From the IMG/VR virus record IMGVR_UViG_3300045988_171858: a stretch of DNA of 64,000 nucleotides, one strand, 5' to 3'. The DNA is from a virus. Made by a program: the position numbers and the translations under genes. This document shows positions 26,402-61,590 of the stretch, piece after piece. The notes under the pieces are model-generated. The model saw only the letters and a program-made list of their open reading frames with translations, did not search any database and was not told the DNA's origin. Positions within the stretch are counted from its first letter, which is position 1. Each line of letters starts with the position of its first letter.

Positions 26402-26764
26402 TTAACCGATAAGAGCTTGGAACATTTGAATAAGCTCAGAAGCTTTACGCTTAGATTTACGAGCGTCAAGGTGTTCCTGATGGGCTTGAAGTACACTCGC
26501 TTTAGATCGGCGAACTTCTTTTTTATTTTCTGCTTCATCAAGAATTCCAGCCAATGTAATAGCACCGATAAGCTTCAGAAACTCTTCAAACTCTTTTTGC
26601 TCATCGTCTTCACATTCAAAGGTTTCGGTTGGAATAACTTCTACAGGCTCGTCATCTTGGACTGAACGCAAATAACCCAGTCCGTCAATAGCTTTACTTC
26701 TTTCAGCAGCTCGATGTGCTGCTAGGATTTTGGCGATATCGCCAGGGGAAACGTTACGAATCAT
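26402..26764 (-). CDS. hypothetical protein (120 aa)
   Basis: ORF whose start overlaps the nrdA stop by 1 nt. Confidence 0.65.
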   Translation of the reverse strand: MIRNVSPGDIAKILAAHRAAERSKAIDGLGYLRSVQDDEPVEVIPTETFECEDDEQKEFEEFLKLIGAITLAGILDEAENKKEVRRSKASVLQAHQEHLDARKSKRKASELIQMFQALIG

Positions 26765-28206
26765 TATAGTTTACACGCTACACAATCGTCTTCATCGTCT
26801 GTGTGAGAATCATCAGGAACTTCGGTTACATTGCCTTCCATAATGTCGGAAGATTGACCATCATAATTGTTATTATAATACATGGTCTTACCTCCCAATA
26901 GATAATGGAGATAAATGTCCCAAGATACAACAGATGCGGGCACCTTGTTGTTCGGATAATTCTGTTTGTTATAATACGTATTAACAGAAATAGCTTGGTC
27001 AGTATATCTCTGAATAACAGCATAAGTTTTAATTAGCGCCTCATTAGACGTATGATCCCAAATGCGGTCATACTTATCTTTAAGCCGCGCCAATTCAGGC
27101 ACTACGAATTTAGCCTGTCTATTCTTGCCGCCCTTAGAAATAATCAATTCCCGTATTGGCTCAATACCATTGGTAGTACCAGAACCAGAAATCTTAGCAC
27201 TCGTTTCAGCAGGGAACATAGCAATCATAGAAGCATTTCTAACACCGTACTTAGCAATTCTAGCACGGAGACTAGTCCAATCTAATTTCTCTTCATAATT
27301 AAACAAAGAGTCATACATAGGAGTAGTCATATCTTTTGGAAGTTTACCTTCCGCCCATCGAGTATCAGCGTATGCATCACAAGCACCGCGCTCTTCAGCA
27401 AGGCTAACAGAAGCACTAATAACTCCATAAGAGAAATATTGCATCCATTCGTCTAACAGTTCATAGCAATTGGAATATTTCTTATCATTCTTAGCTAACC
27501 AATATGCAAGACCTGTAATACCAATACCAATAGGTCTAAACAATCTATTATGTTCCTCGGCCGCCGGGAAAGGATGCTCTTGGAAATCTAACAAATTGTC
27601 AACAGCACGCATAGTTACATAAGCTACACGAGCCAAATCTTTAGGGTCATCAAAAGCCCCAAAGTTAATACCACTCAAGTTACACAGAGCAATCAATCCG
27701 TCCTGCTTATATGTCTTACTTACAGGGTCATAAGTTCGCGTAAGTCCTTGAGTTGGAAGAACAATCTCAGCACACAAATTAGATTGTTTAATCGGATATC
27801 TGTCCGTATTGTACATAGAATGACGGTTAATATTATCCGCAAATCCTACATACACTCGACCAGTGCCGAATCTTTCTTCCACCAATAGGTCCATAAGGTG
27901 TCGGGCATTAATAGTACCAACAGCCTCGCCTTTATTCATGGCTCTGGTGTAAGCATCATAAAAATGAGAGTCAGAACAGCTAGAATAAAAAGCATCGTAA
28001 ACCTCTTTGGAGATATGCGGGGAGAACAGGCCAATATCCCTATTTTCCGCCGCGGCCTTAAGCATAAAGCCGTTTAAGAATATAGAATGGTCAGAATGTT
28101 TCATAGACTCAGAATCCTTCTTCATATTATTTTTATAAAGAAGAGTTTCTTCGATGTCTGGATGTAGACCCCACCAGTTGAATGTCAATGAGCCCTTCCT
28201 GATGCC
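26764..28206 (-). CDS. nrdA: ribonucleotide reductase class Ia large subunit, exon 2
   Basis: Begins GIRKGSLTFNWWGLHPDIEE and contains NLCAEIVLPT. Joining it to exon 1 restores SCSQG|GIRKG (compare E. coli SCSQGGVRGG). Confidence 0.9.
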   Translation of the reverse strand, partial: GIRKGSLTFNWWGLHPDIEETLLYKNNMKKDSESMKHSDHSIFLNGFMLKAAAENRDIGLFSPHISKEVYDAFYSSCSDSHFYDAYTRAMNKGEAVGTINARHLMDLLVEERFGTGRVYVGFADNINRHSMYNTDRYPIKQSNLCAEIVLPTQGLTRTYDPVSKTYKQDGLIALCNLSGINFGAFDDPKDLARVAYVTMRAVDNLLDFQEHPFPAAEEHNRLFRPIGIGITGLAYWLAKNDKKYSNCYELLDEWMQYFSYGVISASVSLAEERGACDAYADTRWAEGKLPKDMTTPMYDSLFNYEEKLDWTSLRARIAKYGVRNASMIAMFPAETSAKISGSGTTNGIEPIRELIISKGGKNRQAKFVVPELARLKDKYDRIWDHTSNEALIKTYAVIQRYTDQAISVNTYYNKQNYPNNKVPASVVSWDIYLHYLLGGKTMYYNNNYDGQSSDIMEGNVTEVPDDSHTDDEDDCVACKL

Positions 28207-28473
28207 CAAATATGTTCAGTATCGTTCGCAAATCGACACCCGGGATTATACCCAGCTCTATATCACTATAGAGTTCAGACTATATCTTCATCCGTATTAA
28301 ACGGAGCGTAACATTTCGAACGCCATAAGCTTGCGTCCTACGCCTCTCGGCTAGTCGTTGAACCTTGAATCCATAAAAGGAAACCTTGGCTGCTGATTGT
28401 CTCGTATGTTGAGAGTTCCCAGCAATTAATTACGTTTGCTATTGTATATTACTATACAAAGGGGCAGTCATTT
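28207..28473 (-). mobile_element. group I intron (family 1, 267 nt, no ORF) in nrdA
   Basis: On the - strand: 5' splice site GGU|AAAUGACUGCCC (P1 GGGU/GCCC), P AAUUGCUGGGAA, Q AAUCAGCAGCC, R GGUUCAACGACUAGCC, S GAAGAUAUAGUCUGAAC, terminal G before GGC. The exon-1 frame stops 2 codons into the intron. Confidence 0.85.
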
Positions 28474-29361
28474 ACCCTGGCTACAAGAAAGTGCACTATA
28501 CTCGATAGATTTAGCATGATAAAGAGCTCCACTGTTTACAGCAGCACCATTTCTGATTGATGCATTGCGCTCTCTTAATTTGGATGAACCAATACCAAGG
28601 CCCGCGCCCAGTGTTGCATATTTACGGGCAGCAGTTGCCGCTTCGCCAATCGAATCGATAGAATCATCAGTTTCAATCAGGACACATGAACTAAAACTAC
28701 GAGTAGGTTTCCTCAAATTTGCAATATGAGGAGTGGGAACATTTACCCGGCCAAGAGACATATTGTCATAATGCTCTTTAACAAAGCTTAGACGATCTGT
28801 ATAAGCATCGCCTTTATCGTTGATAAAGTACATCATAGCTGCAACCATATACGAAACTTGTGGAGTCTCGTAATATTCTTTGGTTTTAGCATTCTTGGCT
28901 AAGTATTTAGCTTCCCATTCAACCGCGCCGGAGATAGAATACATCATATCCCTATTGTGGTCTATTTGTTTATTCAGCCATTCAATTTCTTCTTCAGAAT
29001 ACTTCTCAAGAATAATCTTGTCATAAACACCAAGCTCTGTATTGTGTTTAATAATTTCATGTAAATGTTTAGGCTCAAAATCACCATAAACATATTTGCG
29101 CATATTACAAAGCAAGATGCGGCCGGCAACAATAGCATAATCAGGATGCTCTTCATCAATCAAATTGTTAGCACTGGTTAACAATGCCCCATTGATTTCT
29201 TCGGTAGTGATCCCATCGTAAAACATAATGTTGCTATTGACAGCAATTTCAGAAACAGAAACGTTGTCTAATCCTGCACATACAAAACCAAGAAAGGAAT
29301 TGATACGTTCAGGGTTATAAGGGACAACGTCACCGTTACGTTTGGTAACGTTGAATCCCAT
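28474..29361 (-). CDS. nrdA: ribonucleotide reductase class Ia large subunit, exon 1
   Basis: N-terminal ATP-cone-like region (VTKRNGDVVPYNPERI) and an RNR body ending ...YSALSCSQG. Confidence 0.9.
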
Positions 29362-29362
29362 A

Positions 29363-29677
29363 TTAAGCCTCTTCCAAGTTCAGTGCCTTAACAAGCTCTA
29401 CAACTTTAGCACGGAGGTCTTTAAATTCTACATGCTCATAAGAGCCTGTATCATCACGATCAATGAAGATTTGAGGAACAGAACGAGGTTCAGGTTTTCC
29501 CATTTCTTCGAATCGTTTTTTCAGTTCTTCCATTTCTGTTTTACCGGCATCAACATAAGTCTTTTCAAAATAGAATCGCTTATGCTTGTCGATATATTTG
29601 GTACCCAGGCCCTCCAGAATGGCAGTAGCCTGAACACATTGCGGGCAATTGGATTTGGAATAAATCAAAACCTTCAT
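29363..29677 (-). CDS. glutaredoxin/NrdH-like redoxin
   Basis: CPQC active site at aa 11-14 and a VPQIFI motif. Lies between nrdB and nrdA. Confidence 0.8.
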   Translation of the reverse strand: MKVLIYSKSNCPQCVQATAILEGLGTKYIDKHKRFYFEKTYVDAGKTEMEELKKRFEEMGKPEPRSVPQIFIDRDDTGSYEHVEFKDLRAKVVELVKALNLEEA

Positions 29678-31698
29678 TGATTTTTCTCCGGGTTAAATTT
29701 GTTAAACGCAACAAGAATCTCTCCATAATTGGTTTGAGACTTATCAATAATGCCGCGCTCATAATCTGTTTTCTCCGCCTCTTGTGGTGCCACTTGTTCT
29801 TTTTCCTCACCATTCCAAGCTGTTACCCAAGGAATAGGATTCTTAGTTACAGATTGCAGGCCACACAACTCTTCCAGCGGCGGAAGGTTGTATCGTTTCA
29901 ATCTAGCAGTTGCCAGATAGCGCAGATACTCTTCAAGGATTGCTTGGTTAAAGGCAAAAATTTCACCTTCTTTGAACAGGTACTTGCACCAGTCAAGCTC
30001 TTCCATAATGGCATCTCGCCATATTCCTTCAATTGCACATTTGACGTCTTCTTCTTCAGACACCATAAGGAAGTCGATATCATCGACAGGAAGAATGCTT
30101 AGCAGGTTGTTTGTGATTGCGACGTGAATATTTTCGTCCCTATTGATGAGTTTAATAATACGCGCAAGTCCGGGCAATTTGCCCATTTGTCCAAAGATGA
30201 AACTACATGCAAAAGATACTTGGAATCGGATAGACTCCAAAGCATTTGCAGTATGCAATGCAAGCCACAAAGCCCTTACAGCTTCAATACGCTCACATCT
30301 ACCTTCATAGTAATCTTGAACCTTTTGAATGGCATCATCATAATATTTGCAGATGCTATCTTTACATTGGACAATCTCTTGGATGTCCATAACAGTATCC
30401 AAAGTTTCTTTTGGATTAACAAAAGACTGTTGGATAATATGTGTATATGAGAATGAATGCAGGCAGTTGCCGGTAATAGACGGGATGCCTTTATAACGAA
30501 TGACAAACGCGCCGGTTGGCACTGTTAAGCAGTAAACCTTACCTTCATATTGCTCATAAGTCTTTTCGACAAAATCACCACGAACAGTATCGTCATGGCT
30601 AATATACAATACATAGCCGCCATCCTCTTCTTTGTATGTAGAATGAATGCCAGACATAAAGAGCAATGCCTGAATATCGTCCACAATTTCTTTACGCTCA
30701 ATCCAAAGGTTATCTTTACCAGAAGCTTCGGCCATATTTTTAATTAAACCAAGAAGCTGATAACCTTTAAGATAGCTCATCGAAGAAAGAGGCAGTATAT
30801 CAGTAAGGCGATTATGATAGACATCTTTAATTGCTCCATCTAATTGGAATTCAATACGGTCATCGAATACAAAGCTAGGTTTAGCTAAGTTCGACAACAA
30901 ATCGGCCGCATACTTATTCTTTCCATAAAAATGAAGTTCATCAGGAATACCATCATCTGTCTTAAGGTGATATCCAAGGACAGTTGCATACACCTTAGCG
31001 GCTGTAATCGCATCAAAATCAGCACTGAATTCTTCATCTTCAAAAGCAGTGCCGGTCAATGGCAAACCAACCATCTCATGCGGCTCAAACTTATCGGCCT
31101 CTTCAAAACCAAAAGAGTCATAGGTCACAAAAGGCATTCTATGGTTCTTAGTTACGAACTGCTCAAAATTACCATTAGCAGATTTAAAACGAACCAGTTC
31201 TTCGTTCTTATCGTAAACATGAATCTTCTCAGGATGAGTCCAATACAACCCTCTATTGGTAGAACGATATTGAGCAACCATAGTTTCCATAGTTACATCT
31301 TTAATATCAATCCATCCCTTGTCGGTAAGAACTTCAGCTCCTTCAGCCAAACATTCAAACAAAGACCAAGTTTGAATCACACATTCAAGACTAGGATCAG
31401 CAACCGCCGGATTAAACACAGCAGTAGGAGCACGACCCATAATAGAATCCAATAGGATCTGACGCTTAATGTTAGAAATAACAATATGCTCCTCCGCCTT
31501 TGTAAGCAAAGGAAAGTTAGTTCTATCATTAGTCATATCAATTTCTTCAGGGCGCCAAATCTTTTCAAGCTGCATTGTAAATAAATCCAAGATAACTTTG
31601 TATCTAGGATTATCAAAACGCTGGACCGTAGCGCCCTGGCTGCGGTCCAAGAATAAAGTCTTAGGAAACAATTCGTTCCCAAATACTGTACCTGTCAT
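29674..31698 (-). CDS. nrdB: ribonucleotide reductase small subunit with in-frame intein (674 aa precursor)
   Basis: WRPEEID and the iron ligand motif E|CLHSFSYTHII, which is split by an insert. The C-terminal part is typical of R2. Confidence 0.9.
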   Translation of the reverse strand: MTGTVFGNELFPKTLFLDRSQGATVQRFDNPRYKVILDLFTMQLEKIWRPEEIDMTNDRTNFPLLTKAEEHIVISNIKRQILLDSIMGRAPTAVFNPAVADPSLECVIQTWSLFECLAEGAEVLTDKGWIDIKDVTMETMVAQYRSTNRGLYWTHPEKIHVYDKNEELVRFKSANGNFEQFVTKNHRMPFVTYDSFGFEEADKFEPHEMVGLPLTGTAFEDEEFSADFDAITAAKVYATVLGYHLKTDDGIPDELHFYGKNKYAADLLSNLAKPSFVFDDRIEFQLDGAIKDVYHNRLTDILPLSSMSYLKGYQLLGLIKNMAEASGKDNLWIERKEIVDDIQALLFMSGIHSTYKEEDGGYVLYISHDDTVRGDFVEKTYEQYEGKVYCLTVPTGAFVIRYKGIPSITGNCLHSFSYTHIIQQSFVNPKETLDTVMDIQEIVQCKDSICKYYDDAIQKVQDYYEGRCERIEAVRALWLALHTANALESIRFQVSFACSFIFGQMGKLPGLARIIKLINRDENIHVAITNNLLSILPVDDIDFLMVSEEEDVKCAIEGIWRDAIMEELDWCKYLFKEGEIFAFNQAILEEYLRYLATARLKRYNLPPLEELCGLQSVTKNPIPWVTAWNGEEKEQVAPQEAEKTDYERGIIDKSQTNYGEILVAFNKFNPEKNQ
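30466..31353 (-). mobile_element. intein (296 aa) in nrdB with LAGLIDADG-like endonuclease region
   Basis: Starts with Cys (FE|CLAEGAEVLTDKGW) and ends ...SITGN|C, so removal gives WSLFE-CLHSFSYTH (ExxH). Internal LGYHLKTDDG and YLKGYQLLGLI segments resemble LAGLIDADG motifs. Confidence 0.8.
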
Positions 31699-31759
31699 AC
31701 TAGCTATTCCTTTTTGTAATTATAATAGTAGGAACATCTTAATTGCAACAAAGCAATAA

Positions 31760-32400
31760 GGTCGGACGAAAATGTCCGCTCGGATCCGGCAGCATGCCGG
31801 ATCTGCAGTCACCCCCGGGCACGGGGGCCCAACATCTGCGAAGCACGGTGTTGGAATCTTCTCAGAAACGAACCTCAGTTCGTAGAAGGTTGGGAATAGC
31901 ATGTACTCCCACAGCTAGTTTTTCTTTTAGAAAAAATAAAGATATTAATGAGCCTCAGCTCATATAAGGCCGGAAGGAAAACTTCCGTCACCGGGCGCGT
32001 CCGCGGCCGTGTGATCAGCTCCGCCAGGCAGCGCCGGGCGGGCGCATTATTTTACCAAAATAATGCAATACAATATTAACGGACCTCAATCCATTTTAAG
32101 GCAGAAGACTATAAGGTTATCCCAGCTGTCAATCACAACTGATGCACCGCACATCTTCTACATTTTAGCAGGCGCTAAAATGCATTTATTTGAATCTACC
32201 CAAAGCGTAGATTCAAATGTCTAAGTATAATCACTCTTAAGTGACAAAGACCGGAAGGCAAGCTTCCGTGCCGGAGCAGAGCCCACGGGATCTGGCCGGC
32301 ACCTACAGCATCAGGCTGCCCGAATTTCGCAGAAATTTGGATGGTGTTATAACGATCCTTAAATCGTAGTTGCCGACTCTGCCCTGGTCGGCCCGGGTTA
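31760..32400. other. GC-rich, hairpin-dense non-coding island (candidate structured RNA or mobile remnant)
   Basis: No ORF of 60 aa or more that fits the gene context. At least 12 stable hairpins are listed in the findings. The strand is uncertain. Confidence 0.5.
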
Positions 32401-32486
32401 TAAAGGAAATTTCATTATGACTTTAGAATTTATGAAAATTAAATCTAAAAGGTTATGGAGCTTAATCCATCGCCGCAATTAATCTT

Positions 32487-32975
32487 TTATTTTTCTGTGG
32501 CATTGCGATCAACCACACCTTTTTGTTTTTGTTCTCGATAACGTTTTGCCCTGATCTCCCTTGCCTTCTCTAAGGCCGGATTTTCAGAACTCTTCATTAT
32601 AGAATTGAAATCGTATTCAACATCAGGATAAGGCACTGAATCTATGATCGCCTTTAGCTCTTCTTTACTTTTAGGACATTCGGATTGAGGAATCCTAATT
32701 AGCTTAATGCCGGACTCTTCTGCTTTTCTGTCCTTCTTTTTGTCCTTGAACTGCTGCCACTTAAAGCCTGTAATGTCTTTATGAAAATGTTTAATAAATT
32801 CAGCATGCTGGGCCCCATCGGTTTCTACGACTATTCCCATTTCTTTGACGAAACAGTCATATCTCGTCCCATCTGGAAGACAAGCTTCGTATATAACATT
32901 ACACGTAGGATAAAGCTGGCAAAGATAGCCATAAATAATGCGCTGTTCATTGGAGCCTCTATTATCGGCCGCCAT
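32487..32975 (-). CDS. free-standing PD-(D/E)XK (Vsr/DUF559-like) endonuclease
   Basis: The pattern ...RYDCFVKEMGIVVETDGAQH... matches the 'D-x(n)-(V/I)-E-x-DG-x-x-H' core of the Vsr/DUF559 nuclease fold. Basic C-terminal tail. Confidence 0.55.
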   Translation of the reverse strand: MAADNRGSNEQRIIYGYLCQLYPTCNVIYEACLPDGTRYDCFVKEMGIVVETDGAQHAEFIKHFHKDITGFKWQQFKDKKKDRKAEESGIKLIRIPQSECPKSKEELKAIIDSVPYPDVEYDFNSIMKSSENPALEKAREIRAKRYREQKQKGVVDRNATEK

Positions 32976-33599: not shown

Positions 33600-34475
33600 T
33601 TAGAAATTGTCAGGTATCATCTTTTGTATTCCGCAATAATTATGATTTGGGCAAGCAGAACATTTTCCCGGATTACCTCCGGAAGTAGAGTCAGAGTTCA
33701 TAAATCTGATAGCTATTTCTTTTAGCGGCCCTTGAGTAAACTCAGGTCGCTTGGTCACTCCTGTATTGATATTAGGTGTCCAACCAAATGGAATCCGAAT
33801 ATCATGCAAAGTATTAACCTTAATCCCTATATCTTCTATATGCTTTACAACTGCCATGTTTCTTGGATTGTTATATGCATACATCGGGTTGTTTTTATCA
33901 TCTTGATGAAAAGGACTAATTAAAAAAACCTCAATTCCATCTTCCATCAATAGGATAAGGTCTATCGACGTATGAAACGTCTTTCTTGGCTTTCTGCCAT
34001 AGGACCAAAATATAAGCTCGTCATTAATAGCGCCCTTAGAGTTATACACCCTATCAGAGATTATATCCAAAGACTCGGTTAAGAATCTTCTTAGTGCCGC
34101 TTTATACGACTCCATATTTTCATCTCCAGCTGGGAGTATCTTCCTAATTTTGCGCTCAAAATAGAGAATTGGGGCATTGCTAGGCCCATTCAAATCAGAC
34201 ATATAGATCTTAATTGCTTCATATAAAGCCAGGGCGGCCCGCTCTTTCTCACTGAGATTTTCATCATCAGAAGAAAGACCTTCAAAAGAAATGATTTGAT
34301 TTAGACTACGATAAACTGTATCCGGCGCGTCAATCTTATTCCTGCATTGGGTATACAATTTAAACATATTAGCATTAAGCTCCATATAAGGAGCATCAGC
34401 CCTAGTCCTTCTATCATGAAGAGGTATCTCAACCTCCTCCTTTAAGACAAGCTCTTCTATCTCATTGTTGAACAT
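33600..34475 (-). CDS. Cas4/RecB-like nuclease with C-terminal Fe-S cysteine cluster
   Basis: C-terminal GKCSACPNHNYCG (Cx2Cx5C) plus an upstream Cys, as in Cas4/AddB-type nucleases. The acidic catalytic residues are not clearly placed. Confidence 0.5.
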   Translation of the reverse strand: MFNNEIEELVLKEEVEIPLHDRRTRADAPYMELNANMFKLYTQCRNKIDAPDTVYRSLNQIISFEGLSSDDENLSEKERAALALYEAIKIYMSDLNGPSNAPILYFERKIRKILPAGDENMESYKAALRRFLTESLDIISDRVYNSKGAINDELIFWSYGRKPRKTFHTSIDLILLMEDGIEVFLISPFHQDDKNNPMYAYNNPRNMAVVKHIEDIGIKVNTLHDIRIPFGWTPNINTGVTKRPEFTQGPLKEIAIRFMNSDSTSGGNPGKCSACPNHNYCGIQKMIPDNF

Positions 34476-36987
34476 TTTGACCGATACCCTGTTTAGCAGC
34501 AGTATTTTGCTGAATCAGTGCATCAAACTCACGAGGAGTCATCTCTTCAAAGTAAGCCTTCTCAGGCCAGAATCTAGTTGGAATATCACCCTTAAAGGAT
34601 GCAACTTTATTCTTACCAATGCTCCAGATAACAAGAGGTTTTCTACGACGAGATTCATCTTCGCTATAATCAATATGATAAGCGACTGCATTCTCGCGCA
34701 GACCATGCAACTCATTCCAACCGTGCATAATCAGATTACTGTCATACACAAGGCTGTTAGATTCGGCAATGTTGTTATTGTGTGGGCGAACATCCGGCGG
34801 CATCTTCGTATACTCTACGGTTGAAACAACAGTCAAACCATACTCTACAGAATATGCCTTCAGTTCATGTGAGATATGTTGGAATTTCTCACGTCCGGAC
34901 CTCTCAGTTGGGACCTGAATCAAGTGGAAGTTATCAATGAAGAAGTAGATGTGGCGACCAGGATATTTATCCCGGTAATTAGCCATCAGTGTCTTAATGA
35001 ACGCCAATGAGCGACCATCAACACTATCGTAGATAATGAATCTGTCTTCTCTGGCATAGCTTAAGAATTTACGGAAAAACAATTCCCGCTCTTCAAGAAG
35101 CATAGGATATTCTCGGCTATCTTTATACAATTCCGGTTTAGCGAATTTGTTAATGTTGATAGCATCAAAAATGTCCATATTGCCATTATCTCTTGCTCGT
35201 TTTGCCGCATCATAACAAATAAATCTCGGCAATAGCTCTTTAGCACTATCGTCAATGGAAAGGAAGATAACCATAGCATGTGGATTATTCTCCGCAATGC
35301 GCCATGACAAGTTGACCTGCCATGAGGTTTTACCAGAGTTAGAAGAGCCACCAATAAAGATGACTTTTTCCTGGATATCGCCATCAGTAGTGGCAGATAG
35401 GATAGGCATATCGCCGCCCCAATCTGTATATTTGCCACTACTAGGGTCTTCCTGATATTCCTTGATCCCCAAGATATTATTAACGCGGGCAGACGTATCC
35501 ATAATGTCCGTATTGTTCATCTGGTTAATCTGCCCTATATTAGACAGGGCTTCACTGAGTAAAAGTTCAGAGTCATTACTCGAGTCACTATTCAAGTCTT
35601 TAATCAGCTTGTCAATAATGGCTCTTTTAGAATCTTGACTTCTACGATCCTTTTCACGCTCAGACTTGTTTACCTCATCACGAATGATTCTATCACTATA
35701 GCCGGTAAACACAGACAATTCGGAAATCATCTTTTCCCTACGAATAGAGCTAGGCTCGCTTGTAATAATAGGAACCATCTTTTCGCAGATGTCTGCAGGG
35801 TCCATATCATCATCTTCGAATAGGGATAATCTCCAAGAGAAGGACGAAACCTTTGGAATCTCTTTAAATTTTTCGATTCCATATTTACGGACGAATTCAT
35901 CAGGGTCAATCTTAACCCTGACTCCATTTTCATATTCATCAGGCAAGAATACAAAAGCAAACTTGATATCATGGGTTTTAGCCACGACTTTATCAAGCAT
36001 ATCTATCGCTTTCTGTCTACCAGCTGCGTCATTGTCCAGACAGATTGTAATATTATACAAGCCATTCCGGCGCAATGTATTTAAATGGGCCTCAGAGAAA
36101 TCAAGGCCGCAAATACCAACGGCATTAGTCATACCGTGGTTATGCAGACTTAAGGCATCAGAATTGCCCTCTACAATAAAAATGGAATCAGTTGTTTTAC
36201 GGGCCTTATCCAATAGATAAAGTCGCTCATTCTTCTTGTAGATGTTCTTCTTAACACCGTTTTTAGTTCCAATGAATTTAGGGCCGTTAACCAGTTTCCC
36301 ATCCTCATTGAATACACCATCATAGTTCAGATTACGGGCTTGGAACCCAACAGGACGACCAAACTCATCACAAATGGTATAGATAAAATTCGAAGGATTG
36401 AACAACATCGGGTTACACAAATCAACTTCGTCGATAAATGTATTTTTAAAACCAAGGTTATTCAAATACTTGCGCAAATCGGCAACATCATTACATACGC
36501 CAATCCGGTATTTCTTCATGAATTCAGCACTGAATCCCCGCTTCTCCATTTCCCCCATCTGCTTTTCATTCAAATCAGTTCGAGAGACAATATAGTTCGA
36601 GGCAGCTTCATAGGTCTGATACATGTTAAGCTCATATACCTCATCCTCAGAGAGTTTACGATATACAAGCTCAATGCCATATTTATCGGCGAGATATGCA
36701 ACGGTGTTGTCGACAAATCCGGGGCCAGACATGGGTTTATCTTCCAGCACATGAGCTGCATTGAAGATGTCCATTGTAGACCCACAGCTCATACACTTCA
36801 CAAGAGGATAACCCTGTTCCGCCATAAACATGGACATTGACGGGTGATGGTCATTATGTTCAGGATTCAAGCAACAAATCTTTTTGCCATTCTCTACATT
36901 GAGACCATGCTCATGCAGATATGCAGGCAAAAACATTCGAATGCTATCAAGCTGACTTTCGAAATCACTTATTTTTCTGTAAGACAT
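34462..36987 (-). CDS. bifunctional primase-helicase (T7 gp4-like, 841 aa)
   Basis: N-terminal zinc ribbon (CCLNPEHNDHHPSMS...CMSCG), TOPRIM (IFIVEGNSDALSL...CLDNDAAG) and C-terminal DnaB-type Walker A (GGSSNSGKTSW). Confidence 0.9.
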   Translation of the reverse strand: MSYRKISDFESQLDSIRMFLPAYLHEHGLNVENGKKICCLNPEHNDHHPSMSMFMAEQGYPLVKCMSCGSTMDIFNAAHVLEDKPMSGPGFVDNTVAYLADKYGIELVYRKLSEDEVYELNMYQTYEAASNYIVSRTDLNEKQMGEMEKRGFSAEFMKKYRIGVCNDVADLRKYLNNLGFKNTFIDEVDLCNPMLFNPSNFIYTICDEFGRPVGFQARNLNYDGVFNEDGKLVNGPKFIGTKNGVKKNIYKKNERLYLLDKARKTTDSIFIVEGNSDALSLHNHGMTNAVGICGLDFSEAHLNTLRRNGLYNITICLDNDAAGRQKAIDMLDKVVAKTHDIKFAFVFLPDEYENGVRVKIDPDEFVRKYGIEKFKEIPKVSSFSWRLSLFEDDDMDPADICEKMVPIITSEPSSIRREKMISELSVFTGYSDRIIRDEVNKSEREKDRRSQDSKRAIIDKLIKDLNSDSSNDSELLLSEALSNIGQINQMNNTDIMDTSARVNNILGIKEYQEDPSSGKYTDWGGDMPILSATTDGDIQEKVIFIGGSSNSGKTSWQVNLSWRIAENNPHAMVIFLSIDDSAKELLPRFICYDAAKRARDNGNMDIFDAININKFAKPELYKDSREYPMLLEERELFFRKFLSYAREDRFIIYDSVDGRSLAFIKTLMANYRDKYPGRHIYFFIDNFHLIQVPTERSGREKFQHISHELKAYSVEYGLTVVSTVEYTKMPPDVRPHNNNIAESNSLVYDSNLIMHGWNELHGLRENAVAYHIDYSEDESRRRKPLVIWSIGKNKVASFKGDIPTRFWPEKAYFEEMTPREFDALIQQNTAAKQGIGQNVQQ

Positions 36988-37002: not shown

Positions 37003-37392
37003 TTATTGTTCTTTGGCTTTTTCTTCTGCAGCTTTTACTGCTGCTTCGGCGGAATCGGCAAGTTTCTCTGCTTGTTCTGCAGCAGACTGTTCGGCTTCTT
37101 GTTCCAGGCGGTCACGGTGTGCCTTCAGCTCTTGACCAAGACGGGTCATTTCTTTTTCAAATTCTTCGCGTGTGACCAATTTCTTTTCTTCAAGGATGGA
37201 CAGAATTGCCTCACAAATCAGGAAGTTAGACATCCATTTGCCATCTTGTTCTGCAAATGCATGGCTTGCACGGCCAAGTGCACTTTGGAAACTACCAAGT
37301 GCAAAATACACTTCGGTAAAACGCTTAGATGCTTCGGCGAAATCTTTGACTTCGATTTGTGGAATTTCTTGTTGTAGTTTTTGTTCAGACAT
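37003..37392 (-). CDS. hypothetical protein with Ala/Glu-rich coiled-coil tail (129 aa)
   Basis: ORF whose start overlaps the upstream stop by 1 nt. Confidence 0.65.
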   Translation of the reverse strand: MSEQKLQQEIPQIEVKDFAEASKRFTEVYFALGSFQSALGRASHAFAEQDGKWMSNFLICEAILSILEEKKLVTREEFEKEMTRLGQELKAHRDRLEQEAEQSAAEQAEKLADSAEAAVKAAEEKAKEQ

Positions 37393-38330
37393 TATGTGTA
37401 TCCTTGTTCTTCTTTTTGTTGTTTACAAATAGTTCTGTAGTTGCAATATGCACATTGCCAATCACCGATTGGGTTGGCATCTGGATTTCTTGTCCATTTT
37501 TCGTATTTAGTTTTTGCGATTTCGCCTTCATTCCAAAGTCGGATTACCTTTTCTTTGGAATAGACATGTTCATAGTCGGGCGGCGGCGGCATGTCTTTGT
37601 AGTCACGGGCAGAATTAATTTGCTCTTCATACCGCTCAAATACACCCTCAAGGGTAATACCAGGCATATCATAAGAATGATGAACACCTTTAATGTCTTC
37701 ACCATCAATATGGATATAGGTCTTATCACCTTCTGGTCTTAATGTTACCCAGAATTCCCTATTGTTCTCTGGTCCTCCACAAGCCCTATCAAAATAGGTT
37801 AGTAAAACCCTATTGATTCCGCCTCTTTCTGGAGGATTGAAATAATGCAGATACAAAGCAGCCTGCATTACATTCTGATGCTTAGGCATAGGAACTCTAC
37901 CTCCAATGCCGCAATACTCAGCTTTGGCCTGATAATTAGCAGAGCTATAAGTCTTAGACTCTACGATAATTACTTCCCCTGTTTCAGGGTCCTTGATTGC
38001 AATATCGATTTCACCGGAAAGATAATATTCAGGGATAGAGAACTTCAGGTTATTCATCAGGAAGAAACCACCGAGCTTACATTGCTCAATAATCCATTCT
38101 TCCCACATCTTACCTGCAGCAAAGATATACTGGCTATAAGCCCCAGATGGGTCAGACTCGGAGTACCCTGCCAAACGATACCATGTTGCCCTTAAACAAC
38201 CACCGTGGATTTTAGAAGGGTCTTCAATATCACGGCAAGATGCCGATGAAGGATAGAGCGTTTTTAGACGACTTCCCTTTAACGGCGGCGGGGCCAATAT
38301 GTTATCTTCTATTGTTTTAAAAAATCTCAT
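37392..38330 (-). CDS. Cas4-like PD-(D/E)XK exonuclease with Fe-S cluster
   Basis: N-terminal Cys (HGGCLRATWY), D...ExK core (GEIDIAIKD...VIIVESKT) and C-terminal CAYCNYRTIC (Cx2Cx5C). Confidence 0.75.
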   Translation of the reverse strand: MRFFKTIEDNILAPPPLKGSRLKTLYPSSASCRDIEDPSKIHGGCLRATWYRLAGYSESDPSGAYSQYIFAAGKMWEEWIIEQCKLGGFFLMNNLKFSIPEYYLSGEIDIAIKDPETGEVIIVESKTYSSANYQAKAEYCGIGGRVPMPKHQNVMQAALYLHYFNPPERGGINRVLLTYFDRACGGPENNREFWVTLRPEGDKTYIHIDGEDIKGVHHSYDMPGITLEGVFERYEEQINSARDYKDMPPPPDYEHVYSKEKVIRLWNEGEIAKTKYEKWTRNPDANPIGDWQCAYCNYRTICKQQKEEQGYT

Positions 38331-40683: not shown

Positions 40684-40980
40684 CAAATATGTTCAACCTC
40701 ATTCGCAAGTTGAGGTCCGTTATTAATAACTGCTCTATGTTTCCATAGAAGTTCAGACTATATCATATCCTCCGGCATTATCCGGTAAGGCACCAATAAG
40801 GTGTCTACATAGAGGAATAAATCCACTGTAGAATTCCCATTTTCAGACATCATAAGCTTATGCCTTACGCTTTTCAGCTAGTCGTTGAACCTGTCCGTAG
40901 ACGTGGCTGCTGATTCCCTAAACGGGTTCCAGCAATTAACGGGATTATCATTTGTATATTTCTATACAAAGGCGCCAATG
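40684..40980 (-). mobile_element. group I intron i6 (family 1, ~297 nt) in dnaE
   Basis: Closely resembles the nrdA intron: UUUGUAUAGAAAUAUACAA, P UUAAUUGCUGGAAC, Q GGAAUCAGCAGCC, R GGUUCAACGACUAGCU, S GAUAUGAUAUAGUCUGAAC, 3' end GAACAUAUUUG|. P1 pairs GCGU with GCGC. Confidence 0.75.
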
Positions 40981-41107
40981 ACGCATACCTCGCAAACTCC
41001 AGGAGCTCTTCCCAGAATTGCGCTACTTCTTGTTTATCTTCACCATTGGCCACTGCACCATTGATGAAGTCCTCTCTGAGTGATGCCAGTTTGGCTGCAT
41101 CTTTTTT
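40981..41107 (-). CDS. dnaE: dnaE C-gene exon (KKDAAKLASLREDFINGAVANGEDKQEVAQFWEELLEFARYA)
   Basis: Matches the DnaE 'gKKk...m...F..Ga..nG......if..i..FagY' region. Confidence 0.8.
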
Positions 41108-41839: not shown

Positions 41840-42091
41840 CAGAAATGCAATACAACGGTATCTGGTATTTCTATCAGGATTGGACTATCTCATCACCATA
41901 TCAAATGACTTAGGTGTCGGGCGCTGTATCTGGTAATTAAGAACACTATAGTTCTCCAGTAGTCTCTGCACCTTCTTATGGTGTACCATAAGCTTGGCTC
42001 AGGATTGCCTTATCTTAAATTAAGACTTAGGTTTCCCTGAGTTCACCCGATTTTAACCTAACTGTTTCCAATTAGGGCCCCAGACCGCTTT
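41840..42091 (-). mobile_element. group I intron i3 (family 1-like, 252 nt) in dnaE
   Basis: 5' splice site CCU|AAAGCGG with P1 GCCCU/GGGGC, R GUGCAGAGACUACUGG, S GAUGAGAUAGUCCAAUCC, terminal G before GGACCG. Confidence 0.75.
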
Positions 42092-42338
42092 AGGGCGATA
42101 TGTACTAACAATTACTGCAATATCATGAATCGTTTTGGGTTTACAGGCATTAACAAATCCAGACATACCTGCCTCTTCAAATTGAAAGATACCATAGTTC
42201 CTTTCATTCCAAAGAACCTTATACGCTGCCTCGTTGTCCATTGGTAAATTATACCAATCAATATCAATGCCGTGACGCTTCTTAATCAGCTCTCTTGCAA
42301 AGTTAAGAACTGTAAGCGTCTTTAACCCAAGGATGTCT
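42092..42338 (-). CDS. dnaE: dnaE C-gene exon (DILGLKTLTV...GIFQFEEAGMSGF...VSTYRP)
   Basis: Contains the DnaE motifs 'KmDfLGLk.L' (completed across the splice junction) and 'GvFQlES.gm'. The frame was checked against ORF 42053..42241. Confidence 0.85.
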
Positions 42339-43547: not shown

Positions 43548-43800
43548 CGTTTATGTTCAGTATAGGTCGTTAATCTATACCCGGTACAAAACCAGCTCTA
43601 TGTCGCCATAGAGACCAGACTATCTCATCACCATGTCCATGAGGATTTAGGTGCTCTGCGCTTCGAACCACTTGGCCCTACATAATAGTCGTTACACGTC
43701 CTTCGCTTTCGCAAAGTTTCGCACGGTATTGTCTTCTAGAGAGTTTCACCGTTTTCACAGAGTTTTCTGTTGTCAATTTCTTGACAAAGGGACTATTTTA
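43548..43800 (-). mobile_element. group I intron i1 (family 1-like, 253 nt) in dnaE
   Basis: 5' splice site GGAU|UAAAAUAGUCC (P1 GGAU/GUCC), R GUGUAACGACUAUUAUG, S GAUGAGAUAGUCUGGUC, 3' end GAACAUAAACG|AUU. Splicing gives GGGFPD|IDSDVE (the PDxDxD catalytic motif). Confidence 0.8.
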
Positions 43801-44061
43801 ATCCGGGAAGCCGCCACCAACAGTATGAACCTTACCGGTCGGCGGGGTTGTTACGATTCCGAGTAGATAAGCAATAGAAGAATTAGCCTCATTATCCTCA
43901 ATATTTCTAACACTCGCATTATACAGATTCAAATAATACGAATCGATATGATGCAATTCACAATGATTCAATTCGAACATAATATTTGCTTTATGCTCTT
44001 TGAACCAATCGGTATCAGAATAAGAAAGAACTAACTCTCTTAAGTTTTTATGCTCAGCCAT
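43801..44061 (-). CDS. dnaE: dnaE C-gene exon 1 (divergent duplicate of the palm segment)
   Basis: The likely start is the ATG at 44061, which overlaps the upstream stop (AAATGGCTGA). It ends ...SSIAYLLGIVTTPPTGKVHTVGGGFPD. The ORF track opens at 44145. Confidence 0.6.
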
Positions 44062-45811: not shown

Positions 45812-46394
45812 ATCTTCTTACCTCATCAAAAACAAAACAGTTATCCTTGTCGATATCTGTAACATTATACTTCTTAATAACATCTTCCTTAGTAGGGAAG
45901 TCCCTCGTTTCACCATAAAGAATACGATACTCTTCAGCAATCATGCTCTCTTTTAAGCAAGGAACGACGGATTGGGCAGTAGAAACGATAAGTGGAGTCC
46001 ATGTGTTTACTTCACACGCATCGAATTCATCTTGGATTAAACAAGCCCGAATGCAAATTGCCTTGATAGCTTTAAGGATAGACATTTTGCATGAGCGAGG
46101 ATGGAGAAATATAGTACCGCCAATAATAGAATTTGTTCGGTCTAAGTCCTGACAGAAAAAGCCAACATCTTTTTGTCCGTTGTTGACGACATATAGGTCT
46201 TGCGGCGCCTTTGGATAGATGTACCGTTTAAACCAGTCAAAGTTATAACACTTATGCAGCTCTTCCTCACGGATACCAAACTCCTTCAACCAGTCCTCAA
46301 ATGTCCCGCTATAATCATTGATAACCCAGTCTTTATTGGAACATTCCACAAGCCATTCAAAATCGGCTTCTGTTGCTTTTCGTACTAAAACCAT
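45801..46394 (-). CDS. hypothetical protein (197 aa), weak GNAT-like N-terminus
   Basis: VRKATEADFEWL resembles GNAT starts, but no clear acetyl-CoA motif is present. Overlaps both neighbours. Confidence 0.6.
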   Translation of the reverse strand: MVLVRKATEADFEWLVECSNKDWVINDYSGTFEDWLKEFGIREEELHKCYNFDWFKRYIYPKAPQDLYVVNNGQKDVGFFCQDLDRTNSIIGGTIFLHPRSCKMSILKAIKAICIRACLIQDEFDACEVNTWTPLIVSTAQSVVPCLKESMIAEEYRILYGETRDFPTKEDVIKKYNVTDIDKDNCFVFDEVRRYGA

Positions 46395-47518
46395 CAGTCT
46401 TCTCTCTCAACTTCTTCCTGCTCAATAGCTATTTTTAATAGCTCATCAACTTTAGGATAAAAATAATCAATTATCTCAGACAGATTATCAGCCTGAGAAT
46501 TTACGGCAACGATTGTAGAGTACATAGGTTTTACTACAAAATCTTGCCATGAATCAGATAGCCAATACAGATCGTTTTCAACACCTGCCTGTCTATACTG
46601 TATATTCTTAACTGGACAATGGGTTAAGTCTTTCTCGTTTTGTTCAACTATAGGAAAAGACTCATTGTCAGATTTTAGGTTATTCTTATTGAAGAATTGA
46701 ATAACCTTTGGAGAATAGAACATCTCTTCTTCGTTTGCTGCATGATCACGGCACATATAAATGTTACCGCGCGGCGAAATAGCCCTTACGTTCTTTGAGC
46801 ATAAATCCTTATCGCCTTGATGATACCAAGATGCAGCCAATAGCTCTTTCGCTACAAACAGAGACTTATCTTCTCCGGAAATATAAATATCCCTAGAAAT
46901 CTCCATAATGCCTTTAAATAAAGCACCAAAGAAATCTCTAGGGATGATAACAGCTTTGTCTGTTCTATATATTGTTACCGGCTCGTAACTAAACGTATCG
47001 ACACCAAGCGTCGAGAAGAATTTGTAATTATCAAACATATTCTCAAATTTAGCCCGACCATACAGAACAGAACTCAAAGTAATATCAAGCTCATCTGATT
47101 TTCGCATTGCTCTAATATTATTCAGAACAGCTTCAAACTGAGCCTGACTTTCAAAACGTTGCTTATTCTCTTCAAAAGTAGAACCATCAAGAGAAATAAG
47201 AACTTCATCTAAAATATAAGACAGAGAAAGGACTTCTTCCTCCGTCCAGTCTTTAAATAATCCATTAGTGTACAATCTGGTACGAATGCCCATATCAAGA
47301 GAACTGCAAAAATCAATAATGTCAAACAGTTCTTTTTTATGGAGGGTAGGCTCACCGCCGTAAAACTCGACGATGGAACCTACCTTAGCATACTTCCTAA
47401 TGAAGTCTTTAATTTGATTTAAATCAGCCAATACTGGAGATTCATTCTTAGACTGTATACAGCAATAAGAACAATCCAAATCGCAATGATTACTGAACAC
47501 AACACTAAGAATATACAT
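46394..47518 (-). CDS. radical SAM enzyme (374 aa)
   Basis: CDLDCSYC (Cx3Cx2C) at aa 12-19, GGEPTL, and three further C-terminal Cys (possible auxiliary cluster). Confidence 0.85.
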   Translation of the reverse strand: MYILSVVFSNHCDLDCSYCCIQSKNESPVLADLNQIKDFIRKYAKVGSIVEFYGGEPTLHKKELFDIIDFCSSLDMGIRTRLYTNGLFKDWTEEEVLSLSYILDEVLISLDGSTFEENKQRFESQAQFEAVLNNIRAMRKSDELDITLSSVLYGRAKFENMFDNYKFFSTLGVDTFSYEPVTIYRTDKAVIIPRDFFGALFKGIMEISRDIYISGEDKSLFVAKELLAASWYHQGDKDLCSKNVRAISPRGNIYMCRDHAANEEEMFYSPKVIQFFNKNNLKSDNESFPIVEQNEKDLTHCPVKNIQYRQAGVENDLYWLSDSWQDFVVKPMYSTIVAVNSQADNLSEIIDYFYPKVDELLKIAIEQEEVERED

Positions 47519-51702: not shown

Positions 51703-51997
51703 CATTTTGTTATCGCAGAGCTTTTTATCTCTGCTTCTGCATCATTACAATGCAGTTCAGCATACTTTTTCACCATATCCAAAGGACTTAGGTGTAGCGG
51801 CCTCGTGGAAGCATTATATTCTATTATTAGTTTCAGCTTCTATGCGTTGCCCCTGACTGGGCCGTTAGACCAGCCTTCGGTTCGAGTTGTCCTATCTAAG
51901 AGGGAGGATTTTCTCGCTTAATTCCGCTATTATAATTCATAACGTTTCCGCTATGAACGGCAGATATAATCACTTAAGTAGTTGATTTATATACATT
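51703..51997 (-). mobile_element. group I intron (family 2, 295 nt, no ORF) in recA
   Basis: 5' splice site GGU|AAUGUA, GGAAUUAAGCGAGAA, CUCGAACCGAAGG, R GCAACGCAUAGAAG, S GAAAAAGUAUGCUGAAC, 3' end GAUAACAAAAUG|GGA. Splicing gives QTTPG|GKAIPFY. Confidence 0.85.
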
Positions 51998-52654
51998 ACC
52001 TGGAGTGGTTTGCCCACCCCAAAGGTCCATCTTGTCCCTCACCTGATTCACAAAGATCAGAGTGGTATTAGCTTTCTTCAGAGACTCTAAAAGCTTTGGC
52101 AGGGCCTTGGACAAGAATCGGGCTTTCTCGGCCATCGTCTCTTTATCATAATCGCCATTTAATTCACGTTTAGTCATCAGCGCTGGAACGCTATCAACAA
52201 TAACTAAACTAAAGGCGCCGGTAGCGACCGCGCCATCAATAACTTCGAAAACATTTTCAGCTTCTTGCATCTGAAGGAACACAACGCCTTCGTCATTTTC
52301 GCAGTCAAGGCCAAGCTTTCGCATATAGTTGAAGTTTTGTGCCTGTTCGGCGTCAACGTACAAGATATATTTGTCGGGATATTGTCGACGTGCATTTGCA
52401 CAAGTCAAAGATACAATGGTAGATTTGCCAGAACCGGATGCCCCAAAGATCTCGTGAATACGACCTCTGACCCATCCTCCATTGCCAAGAAGACCATCAA
52501 GAATAGCAGAGCCAGAAGAAATAGACTCAAAAACCTGATACTCCCCATTGGAGAAGATATCGCCACCTTCACCGTATTTCTTATTCATTGCTGTCTTAAA
52601 GCTGGTCATTGCCCTTTTAACGTCGGGCGAAACGTTCATTTCTATTTTAGACAC
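51998..52654 (-). CDS. recA: RecA/UvsX-type recombinase, exon 1
   Basis: Walker A GASGSGKST and Walker B LVIVDSV. Ends ..WGGQTTPG. Confidence 0.9.
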
Positions 52655-61284: not shown

Positions 61285-61590
61285 CTTTTTACTATTCCTC
61301 TTACGTTTAGGTTCGACTAACCTAAATCCGCCCTTTCGGTATTGAGATTGTTACGTCATCTCGCGGTGTGGGACTATATCATCACTGATTGTTATCAGTG
61401 CCTTGCGCTTCGGGGCACATCCCTACTCTACTCGATTCTATGTAATTAATTACAAAGTCTTTCGATAGTCTCTGATCGTCCCTTACAGATAAATTATATT
61501 CATCTATTAAGGTTTCGATGCTGATTGCCCTAGACAATTTGTCCTTAAGGGTTTCCAGCAATTCACAAGGTTTTAAATGGGCACATGTTT
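61285..61590 (-). mobile_element. group I intron (family 1, 306 nt, no ORF) in the JAB gene
   Basis: 5' splice site GGU|AAACAUG, P GAAUUGCUGGAAAC, Q GGCAAUCAGCAUC, R GAUCAGAGACUAUCG, S GAUGAUAUAGUCCCAC, 3' end AGUAAAAAG|GCA. Confidence 0.85.

Follow-up and report, generated by a model that had tools for sequence, protein, structure and literature searches.

In enterobacteria, the REP/BIME elements are intergenic mosaics of palindromes and short conserved linkers that are transcribed within operons, where their hairpins stabilise the upstream mRNA and attenuate read-through. In T4-like phages, promoter-early stem-loops (PeSLs) are terminator/promoter motifs that flank open reading frames (ORFs) and are dispersed in hyperplastic regions (PMC4122927), and for the early mRNA of Bacillus phage SP82, a passage of PMC4838370 cites hairpins that are processed by RNase III. 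Here, we analysed a 64,000-nucleotide (nt) stretch of viral DNA (IMG/VR record IMGVR_UViG_3300045988_171858; hereafter, the window), in which a gene-free gap of 788 nt (positions 31699-32486, delimited by the ORF calls) separates a 162-amino-acid nuclease-like ORF (ORF162) from nrdB, the gene for the small subunit of ribonucleotide reductase, and contains an undescribed variant of the intergenic hairpin-module theme exemplified by PeSLs and BIMEs; no description of such an array was found in the literature searched. The conclusion that this gap is a lineage-specific tandem array of small, interchangeable hairpin cassettes rather than one big RNA is well supported, and so is the conclusion that the array is constrained as a single-stranded nucleic acid of the gene-sense strand, that is, the - strand of the window.

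The array shares with PeSLs the use of repeated intergenic stem-loop motifs as joints at which closely related large phages gain, lose, and swap the sequence in between: insertion, deletion, and permutation of its units all break at the repeated junction between cassettes, as detailed below. The joints of the array, however, enclose only non-coding cassettes, lie within a single gap, and include a sigma70-type promoter at the last joint alone; nor does the motif show the dispersal between ORFs that is typical of PeSLs, the junction model being confined to the gap in 64 kb. BIMEs occupy hundreds of loci with near-identical units, whereas the array is phage-borne and consists of strongly diverged units at a single locus; given this single locus and the absence of its best-conserved module from 185,579 species genomes, many-locus repetition of the REP, BIME, or MITE kind is not observed either. 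The SP82 sites, as well as T4-style hairpins that mask ribosome-binding sites, are also hairpins in untranslated spacers of long early transcripts with differential translation, but those are single sites, and a tandem, covarying, reshuffled array has not been described for them.

The original prediction, made from the letters of the window and its ORFs, had singled out this region as a GC-rich, hairpin-dense, non-coding island and as the only long ORF-free stretch without an intron to explain it, and to that extent it holds. The gap is the longest ORF-free stretch of the window apart from the group I introns; the GC content of 31801-32400 is 0.488, compared to about 0.40 for the window, which is the top value among all 600-nt bins. 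The minimum free energy of the gap is far below that of dinucleotide shuffles (z of -7.66 for the - strand and -9.14 for the + strand), and its 400-nt windows rank second and third of 319 after GC content is regressed out (z of -3.7 and -3.2). All the hairpins originally listed are present, at 31783-31803, about 31811-31828 (CCCCC/GGGGG), 31869-82, 31949-62, 31971-87, and 32252-68, as well as at 32044-66, 32161-82, 32188-218, 32268-302, and 32320-40, and both repeated hairpin contexts represent real families, with two matches each against chance expectations of 0.02 and 0.00. The gaps of near-identical relatives are separated by 1-nt indels and the small ORFs within them are not conserved, including a 21-codon ORF on the + strand at 32418 that was not found in relatives, so that protein coding in the gap was rejected. 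As a separate observation, in one relative (L007, 3605-3844), a change of AUU to AUG after one of the hairpins opens a 79-codon ORF through a cassette, which is not conserved in the window or the other relatives. Within the window, the 400-nt stretch that ranks first of the 319 by GC-corrected folding (z -3.7) is coding: 46801-47200, inside an ORF at 46394-47518 on the - strand, is as exceptional as the gap and includes a 26-nt quasi-palindrome at 46889-46945.

The plan of the array is simple: a conserved leader module is followed by one to six variable interior cassettes, which are 67-300 nt long across all arrays and 80-150 nt long in the window, and then by a conserved terminal module, which runs into the promoter and 5' untranslated region (UTR) of nrdB; the array of the window consists of the leader and five cassettes. 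Read in the sense direction, a cassette comprises a hairpin that we denote hp2, whose stem of 5-8 bp carries a YNAG tetraloop with U.G or C-G as the closing pair, then an A/U box, either UAAUAU or UAUAAY, next an A/U-rich hairpin that is long and near-perfect, one to three GC-rich hairpins, a second conserved hairpin, hp1, with a loop of 5 nt (N-W-U-N-C) on a 6-bp stem that is commonly CGGAAG/CUUCCG, and finally, the sequence RYCUU(U). The conserved junction between cassettes accordingly consists of hp1, RYCUU(U), hp2, and the A/U box. Within the gap, the repeat families are 65-87% identical and irregularly spaced (80-404 nt), and the neighbours are a nuclease-like ORF and nrdB, on which grounds a CRISPR or a type III antitoxin array was rejected. 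About 40% of the hp2 stems, for instance, the one at 31868-31883, fit CGAAC-N4-GTTCG or CGAAT-N4-GTTCG, the pattern of the Cheo box of Gram-positive LexA, and the last junction of L008 (3946-3961) contains a perfect match, ACGAAC-TATA-GTTCGT, a short distance before nrdB; since most hp2 stems do not resemble the pattern, the LexA reading was judged to be probably coincidental.

In the window, all modules lie on the - strand. The leader, module A (32368-32486), forms the 5' end of the array, with a hairpin AUGGA-UUAAGC-UCCAU at about 32455-32470 and, at 32372-32392, the best-conserved element of the entire gap, the hairpin GCCGAC-CAGGGCAGA-GUCGGC. Cassette 1 (K; 32246-32367) opens with the hp2 ACGAUU-UAAG-GAUCGU (32352-32367) and a UAUAAC box, which are followed by an A/U hairpin (32320-32340), a GC-rich hairpin (32268-32302), the hp1 CGGAAG-CUUGC-CUUCCG (32252-32268), and the tail GUCUU (32247-32251). 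Cassette 2 (C; 32096-32245) has the hp2 GUCACU-UAAG-AGUGAU (32230-32245), a UAUACU box, a hairpin denoted hp3 with a 12-bp A/U stem and the loop GCUUUGG (32188-32218), another hairpin at 32161-32182, and a long closing stem with GCCUU at its end. Cassette 3 (D; 31964-32095) consists of the hp2 AAUGGAU-UGAG-GUCCGUU (32078-32095), a UAAUAU box, a 10-bp A/U hairpin, GCAUUAUUUU/AAAAUAAUGC (32044-32066), variable GC-rich hairpins (31989-32043), the hp1 CGGAAG-UUUUC-CUUCCG (31971-31987), and the tail GCCUU (31966-31970). Cassette 4 (G; 31884-31963) contains the hp2 AUGAGC-UGAG-GCUCAU (31948-31963), a UAAUAU box, an A/U hairpin (31916-31938), the hp1 variant UGGGAGUA-CAUGC-UAUUCCCA (31891-31911), which includes a G.U pair on the - strand, and the tail ACCUU (31886-31890). 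Cassette 5 (31758-31883), the first part of the conserved 3' end module B, carries the hp2 ACGAAC-UGAG-GUUCGU (31868-31883), three GC-rich hairpins (31828-31856, 31811-31828, and 31783-31803), the hp1 CGGAC-AUUUUC-GUCCG (31763-31778), and the tail ACCUU (31758-31762).

Relatives were found via the flanking proteins together with one conserved 27-nt pattern, which yielded 15 distinct versions of the gap, from uncultured phage contigs of 170-188 kb as well as from metagenome and Logan assemblies; the 27-nt pattern of module A was recovered from 8 metagenome contigs. In searches against cultured phages and cellular genomes, blastn in near and distant modes returned no match to the gap among 50,697 phage records, and tblastn with the primase-helicase of the window retrieved only relatives with less than 30% identity, so the phage has no close cultured relative. 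Of 185,579 bacterial and archaeal species genomes, none contains the best-conserved module, the one module searched; a host origin of the modules was rejected given that neither this module nor the ORF162 family occurs in the GTDB species genomes; the acquisition of the island from a GC-richer donor, which had been proposed originally, finds no support in the absence of the module from these genomes and of matches in the phage database. The position of the gap is constant, always between the ORF162 homologue and nrdB, and ORF162 immediately precedes the array even in relatives with as little as 44% identity. The number of units varies: the L061 clade (ORF162 about 60% identical) has a gap of 206 nt with one unit, the L017 clade has 383 nt and two units, and the window's own clade has 577-896 nt and three to six units. 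In L080 (33% GC; ORF 44% identical), 717 nt between the called genes include at least two junctions with a matching grammar, namely, a hairpin, AUCUUUAC, and an hp2 with a UUAG loop, and in L079 (ORF 46% identical), there are no units and no array.

The composition of the arrays, unlike their position, is variable. Relatives in which the N-extein of nrdB is 97-100% identical share only patches of the gap, in changed order, and module A, which is present in 15 of the 15 arrays, retains 88-92% identity over 51 nt in relatives that are otherwise unalignable. When the units are clustered, the array of the window reads A-K-C-D-G-B and those of its relatives read A-K-C-D-P-G-B (L077), A-Q-D-G-B (L078), A-H-D-B (L007), A-E-C-F-B (L008), A-L-M-N-O-B-B (L015), and A-I-J (L009). 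A three-way alignment of the window with its closest relatives places an extra 88-nt cassette of L077 exactly at the junction before cassette 4, flanked by the imperfect direct repeat CCGATCTT...CCGGCCTT, and reveals a clean deletion of the whole of cassette C in L078; both breakpoints lie within the junction repeat. The same cassette 2 is 100% identical in four relatives in which the neighbouring cassettes differ, and the loop of its hp3 is kept in the distant L061 clade. Seven cassettes homologous to cassette 3 keep the hp2, the A/U hairpin, and the hp1, with the GC-rich interior replaced and its helices covarying. Two independent metagenome contigs end inside the array, L013 (which starts 212 nt before nrdB) and L014 (129 nt before nrdB), and L071 is probably a third (about 290 nt after the ORF162 stop). 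Two, and probably three, contig ends in a 0.8-kb target are many for 180-kb genomes, which fits strain-level structural variation, and suggests either such heterogeneity or assembly difficulty. The array is prone to unequal recombination because its junctions are repeated, and it would appear to evolve by unequal or homologous recombination at these junctions, gaining, losing, and reordering cassettes while compensatory substitution keeps the stems.

The evidence of selection on these stems is extensive. Across 32 distinct copies of hp2, 97.4% of the cells are paired and 67 cells have changed on both sides, a count that none of 500 shuffles reached, and for the complete junction (hp1 and hp2), 92% of the cells are paired, with both-side changes in 11 of the 12 pairs, although the choice of copies was partly conditioned on pairing, which inflates these percentages. 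Orthologous comparisons are therefore more telling. In four arrays that are 92-97% identical, the differences fall mostly within hairpins and at least nine pairs have changed on both sides, as in the changes from CAUUUUC/GAAAAUG to CAUUCUC/GAGAAUG and from GCAACC/GGUUGC to GCAGCC/GGCUGC, and all four are 100% identical in one cassette. Among four close relatives, the hp2 stem of cassette 1 occurs in four versions, each of them complementary, the alternatives to that of the window being AUGGUU/AACCGU, ACGGUU/GACCGC, or ACAGUC/GACUGC, with the flanks unchanged. The divergence of the gap (92-97% identity) is just slightly higher than that of the coding flanks (95-99.7%) and hence is attributable to structure-preserving drift and recombination rather than to hypermutation. 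Thus, the expectation of the original prediction that a structured RNA at this site would be conserved and would covary in related phages agrees with the positional conservation and compensatory helix changes found here. Two further helices were tried and rejected. The RYCUU sequence and the hp2 loop are 87.6% complementary, with no covariation beyond that of shuffles (95 of 500 as high), and an H-type knot between them is sterically unlikely; a long-range helix closing the array (inverted repeat I1) is not kept in L008, where the local hairpin ACGAAC/GUUCGU replaces the 3' partner.

Several observations identify the sense strand as the functional one, a conclusion that is good but not absolute. 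Among the hp2 copies, there are 28 cells with a sense-strand G.U against five non-pairs, and in the local hairpins of close relatives, the uncompensated changes produce eight sense-strand G.U pairs against one A.C. The hp1 variants likewise contain sense-strand G.U pairs (CGGAUGC/GUAUCCG, CGGGUGC/GCAUCCG, and UGGGAGUA/UAUUCCCA), in 11 of the 16 arrays the predicted fold is more stable for the sense strand than for the antisense strand, and the genes flanking the array are all on this strand. The clue that had initially pointed the other way, a G.U pair at 32320-40 if the + strand were the RNA, turned out to be an isolated mismatch, with perfect Watson-Crick pairs at this place in three relatives. 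On the other side of the balance, an unfiltered global count over all possible hairpins gives 79 G.U against 67 A.C, with little strand bias, and on the + strand, the hp1 loops read G-N-A-W-N, resembling GNRA loops.

Within the 64 kb, the junction is specific to this locus. A junction covariance model with its filters off, applied to either strand, matched only the gap, with 67.9, 51.7, and 41.7 bits at the junctions on which it was trained, 28.4 bits (E of 2e-4) at the untrained junction between cassettes 2 and 3, and 17.5 bits (E of 0.056) at the untrained last junction; the best match outside the gap scored 13.7 bits (E of 0.39 in 64 kb). The strict hp1 pattern occurs in the 180-kb relatives only at this gap, and the other 18 database matches are at the chance level. 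Distant arrays were not detected with the junction model, which is too clade-specific for this purpose. A similar grammar of a hairpin followed by a TATAAT-like box occurs outside the array, at 51920-51960 on the - strand, 3' of an ORF at 51974-52654, where a gene-end hairpin, GUUCAUAGCG-GAAA-CGUUAUGAAU, directly precedes UAUAAU as hp2 would, but with a GNRA loop.

What the array does has to be read from its sequence and setting. At the last junction (31699-31757, - strand), which comprises the nrdB promoter and 5' UTR, the position of hp2 is taken by the hairpin AUUGC-UUUGUU-GCAAU (31742-31757), within which lies the -35 element TTGCAA (31743-31748), followed after an 18-nt spacer by the -10 element TATAAT (31719-31724); this is the only sigma70-like site in the gap and matches at 10 of 12 positions. 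Downstream of the -35 element, GUUCCU (31730-31735) can pair with the Shine-Dalgarno (SD) sequence of nrdB, AGGAAU (31706-31711), with the -10 element between the two, and the resulting SD-masking hairpin is predicted in the minimum-free-energy folds of the arrays of the window, L006, L007, L008, L077, and L078, all in the window's clade. In T4, this kind of layout leaves read-through transcripts silent in translation and those from the proximal promoter active. A promoter with its -10 element inside an SD-masking hairpin therefore implies sense read-through across the array. The array is probably a regulatory kind of spacer, and our preferred, if tentative, interpretation, to which we would give somewhat less than an even chance, is that it is a cis-acting spacer for RNA punctuation and insulation, co-transcribed but untranslated, ahead of nrdB's own promoter. 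Under this interpretation, the array would be transcribed by read-through from the upstream replication genes; hp1 and the RYCUUU elements would act as weak terminators or as hairpins protecting 3' ends, and the single-stranded A/U boxes beside hp2 as entry sites for an endonuclease, such that the upstream mRNA would be ended, or cut and stabilised, before nrdB. Hairpins that undergo specific processing have a precedent in the early mRNA of SP82 (PMC4838370). Any read-through RNA would carry the hairpin that masks the nrdB ribosome-binding site, whereas transcripts initiated at the promoter of the last junction would start inside the masking hairpin and be translatable; the excised hairpin RNAs of 80-150 nt may be mere by-products. 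Terminator-like sites show a modest enrichment in the arrays (4 compared to 0.9 +/- 1.1, 2 compared to 0.9, and 2 compared to 0.7 expected per array), and copies of hp1 pass a lenient terminator scan once in the window, once in L008, and twice in L015.

A number of points weigh against the interpretation of the array as a cis-acting spacer. The function of the array and its transcription, processing, and termination are all inferred, and the pairing percentages of hp1 and hp2 are inflated as noted above. The hp1 stems are only 6 bp long with a short, interrupted U tract, in contrast to the gene-end terminators, which have stems of 9-12 bp and U runs. A single processing or terminator site would suffice for the proposed role, so that five cassettes with conserved loops suggest recognition by a specific factor; the YNAG loop of hp2, the GCUUUGG loop of hp3, and the N-W-U-N-C loop of hp1 are kept, along with RYCUU, and a cis-acting spacer does not explain this invariance, which points to a binding factor. 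Nor does it explain the complementarity between RYCUU and the hp2 loop, which lacks covariation. A possible lead comes from the boxB-boxA elements of rrn operons and the nut sites of lambdoid phages, where, as in the array, a hairpin stands beside a U-rich single-stranded motif: the tracts GAUCUUUGACAA, GACCUUUAAAU, and GCUAUCUUUAC of the array resemble the boxA consensus GCUCUUUAACAA. The array differs in having five copies in a row and in that the first positions of boxA are not conserved.

A second, less probable possibility is that the cassettes are a library of trans-acting small RNAs or decoys, each freed as an RNA of 80-150 nt in which a variable hairpin body is joined to a conserved handle (hp1, RYCUU, and hp2), and directed at a host or phage protein or at the ribosome, for instance, as an anti-defence decoy or a sponge of the SD/anti-SD type. 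A conserved scaffold with a variable body, copy-number turnover and reshuffling among close relatives, invariant loops suggestive of recognition by a factor, an anti-SD-like RYCUU, and an SD-like hp2 loop are all as would be expected of such RNAs, and tandem arrays of small structured RNA units have a precedent. In type III toxin-antitoxin systems, near-identical ToxI repeat units of about 36 nt precede the gene of an endoribonuclease toxin and are processed to monomers. The units of the array, however, are 80-150 nt long and diverged, with nrdB downstream; their variable parts are closed hairpins rather than single-stranded seeds; a search for complementary stretches of at least 14 nt elsewhere in the 64 kb gave no antisense targets within the window; no promoter-like site precedes the internal cassettes; and an identity of 92-97%, compared to 95-99.7% in the flanks, gives no sign of an arms race. 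A bolder version, to which we attach a still lower probability, envisages a phage-borne cassette library in which a two-hairpin handle with an anti-SD-like linker and a rapidly exchangeable body would be cut from the read-through transcript and act in trans as a decoy or sponge for a host factor, be it a nuclease or a defence sensor, Nus factors or else the ribosome, with integron-like swapping at the junctions between co-infecting phages. A role in replication or packaging, which the original prediction had raised, is a possibility. We give a rather low probability to the array functioning as DNA, either as a transcription-activated replication origin or as another cluster of protein-binding sites, with iteron-like A/T boxes, meltable palindromes, and GC clamps. 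The array does lie between the primase-helicase gene (34462-36987) and the nrd and polymerase genes, it includes perfect A/T-rich palindromes of 9-12 bp, one of which is conserved in sequence across clades (GCATTATTTT N3 AAAATAATGC), and origins that need a structured transcript are known, namely, ColE1 RNA II and T4 oriF/oriG. It also contains the densest GATC cluster of a GATC-poor window (5 sites in the 788-nt array, with the peak at 31754-32553, out of 84 in the window, or 1.3 per kb), but this enrichment, which in L015 and L016 amounts to 12 sites in about 810 nt, is absent in L009 and L010, which have none, and Dam/GATC clustering as the signature of an origin was rejected because it is not conserved across clades; the rarity of GATC in the coding genome may reflect restriction avoidance. 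Moreover, a folded single strand fits the asymmetry of the G.U type and the compensatory stems better than duplex binding sites do, short iterons with helical spacing are lacking, and the cassettes are individually dispensable and reordered.

Doubtful, too, is the notion that the cassettes are selfish palindromic mini-elements, comparable to MITE/REP elements or mitochondrial GC clusters, that insert side by side at a CCG-RYCTT target, are possibly mobilised by the nuclease-like protein, and have no function for the phage. GC-rich hairpin modules in an AT-rich genome, a copy number that varies next to a nuclease-like gene that always adjoins, and the imperfect direct repeat around the L077 insertion are all in line with this notion, although unequal recombination would account for the direct repeats just as well. 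There is, however, only one such locus per genome, no further copies being present in the 64 kb or, as judged by the strict motif, in the 180-kb relatives; the copies within a genome are highly diverged rather than near-identical; the position and the end modules are kept over deep divergence; and the one module tested is absent from bacterial genomes. The exchange of modules at the junctions, as in PeSLs (PMC4122927), together with a stem-loop followed by a TATAAT-like box at every junction and an actual promoter at the last one, could be taken to mean that each junction is a composite of a terminator and a promoter that drives the next unit. This we consider improbable: sigma70-like sites are not enriched (1 compared to 1.2, 2 compared to 2.1, and 3 compared to 1.1 expected per array), on which account sigma70 promoters at each junction were rejected, the internal junctions have neither a -35 element nor an extended -10, the TAATAT box mutates to TAATAC in L069 and L077, and there are no ORFs between the junctions of a motif that is confined to one gap. 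Finally, the suggestion of the original prediction that the island could be a single large ornate RNA of the GOLLD/ROOL type, or else a decayed ribozyme, is largely refuted and by far the least probable. Like GOLLD and ROOL, the gap is a long, GC-enriched, hairpin-dense non-coding region in a large phage with extreme folding z-scores, and its minimum-free-energy fold pairs the gap ends through the inverted repeat I1. This closing helix is not maintained in L008, though, and there are no conserved multi-helix junctions; in place of one shared multi-domain architecture, only independent local hairpins are conserved, like beads on a string, in an order and content that differ among relatives through indels of whole units. 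In the scan with Rfam 15 that had been proposed at the outset, five group I introns were recovered in the window at the gathering threshold, all outside the gap, with nothing in the gap, and a permissive scan of 31500-32700 (E<=10) with relaxed filters gave just two chance-level matches (E of 6.8 and 8.7); covariance models thus provide no match to GOLLD, ROOL, or any other family, among them HEARO, OLE, raiA, STAXI, riboswitches, and ribozymes. For a decayed group I ribozyme in particular, there is no signal of the group I model (RF00028) in the gap, while the five introns of the window score 67.8-97.6 bits; the gap shows no similarity to these introns, the S-like string UAUAGUCU noted earlier is not conserved in relatives, and nrdB is complete at its N-terminus. 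ARAGORN detected no tRNA or tmRNA genes in the window.

Should the interpretation of the array as a co-transcribed cis-acting spacer be correct, large uncultured phages of human-associated communities would carry a previously undescribed, single-locus, non-coding architecture of hairpin cassettes, which would provide both a compact, naturally occurring case of RNA evolving by compensatory change over very short divergence and a test case for the insulation and timing of the expression of nucleotide-metabolism genes in phages; the importance of the find would rise considerably if the cassettes were to act in trans. For genome scans, the array is a warning against taking extreme folding z-scores in a GC-rich, hairpin-dense island as proof of one ornate RNA.

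The genes of the window from about 23 kb to 64 kb are all on the - strand, where, in the sense order, the primase-helicase gene is followed by several small ORFs, ORF162, the gap, nrdB, the glutaredoxin gene, and nrdA. The upstream flank of the array, ORF162 (32487-32975), has a putative Vsr/DUF559-type domain, and its PHROG matches (559 and 9084; 7.5e-13 and 4.2e-8) are to families with the annotations 'HNH endonuclease' and 'homing endonuclease'; its match to Pfam DUF559 is weak and below the threshold, sub-threshold DUF559 matches are seen in six of nine homologues, and one homologue is labelled Vsr endonuclease by its source record. Given these matches, it is fair to describe ORF162 as a free-standing endonuclease-like gene. 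The downstream flank, nrdB (29674-31698), encodes 674 amino acids in which the Pfam domain Ribonuc_red_sm is split into two stretches by an intein-like insert (starting with CLAEGAEV... and ending with ...SITGN/C); the homologue in L078 has 523 amino acids and the one in L080 is insert-free, with 371. The nrdA gene is split by a group I intron into ORFs at 26764-28209 and 28468-29361. With five group I introns in 64 kb, all on the - strand (28256-28483, 40733-40990, 41861-42101, 43596-43810, and 61352-61600), this phage segment is unusually intron-rich. The replication module also includes a 312-amino-acid ORF (37392-38330, - strand) with PHROG matches to Cas4-domain exonucleases (5.8e-11).

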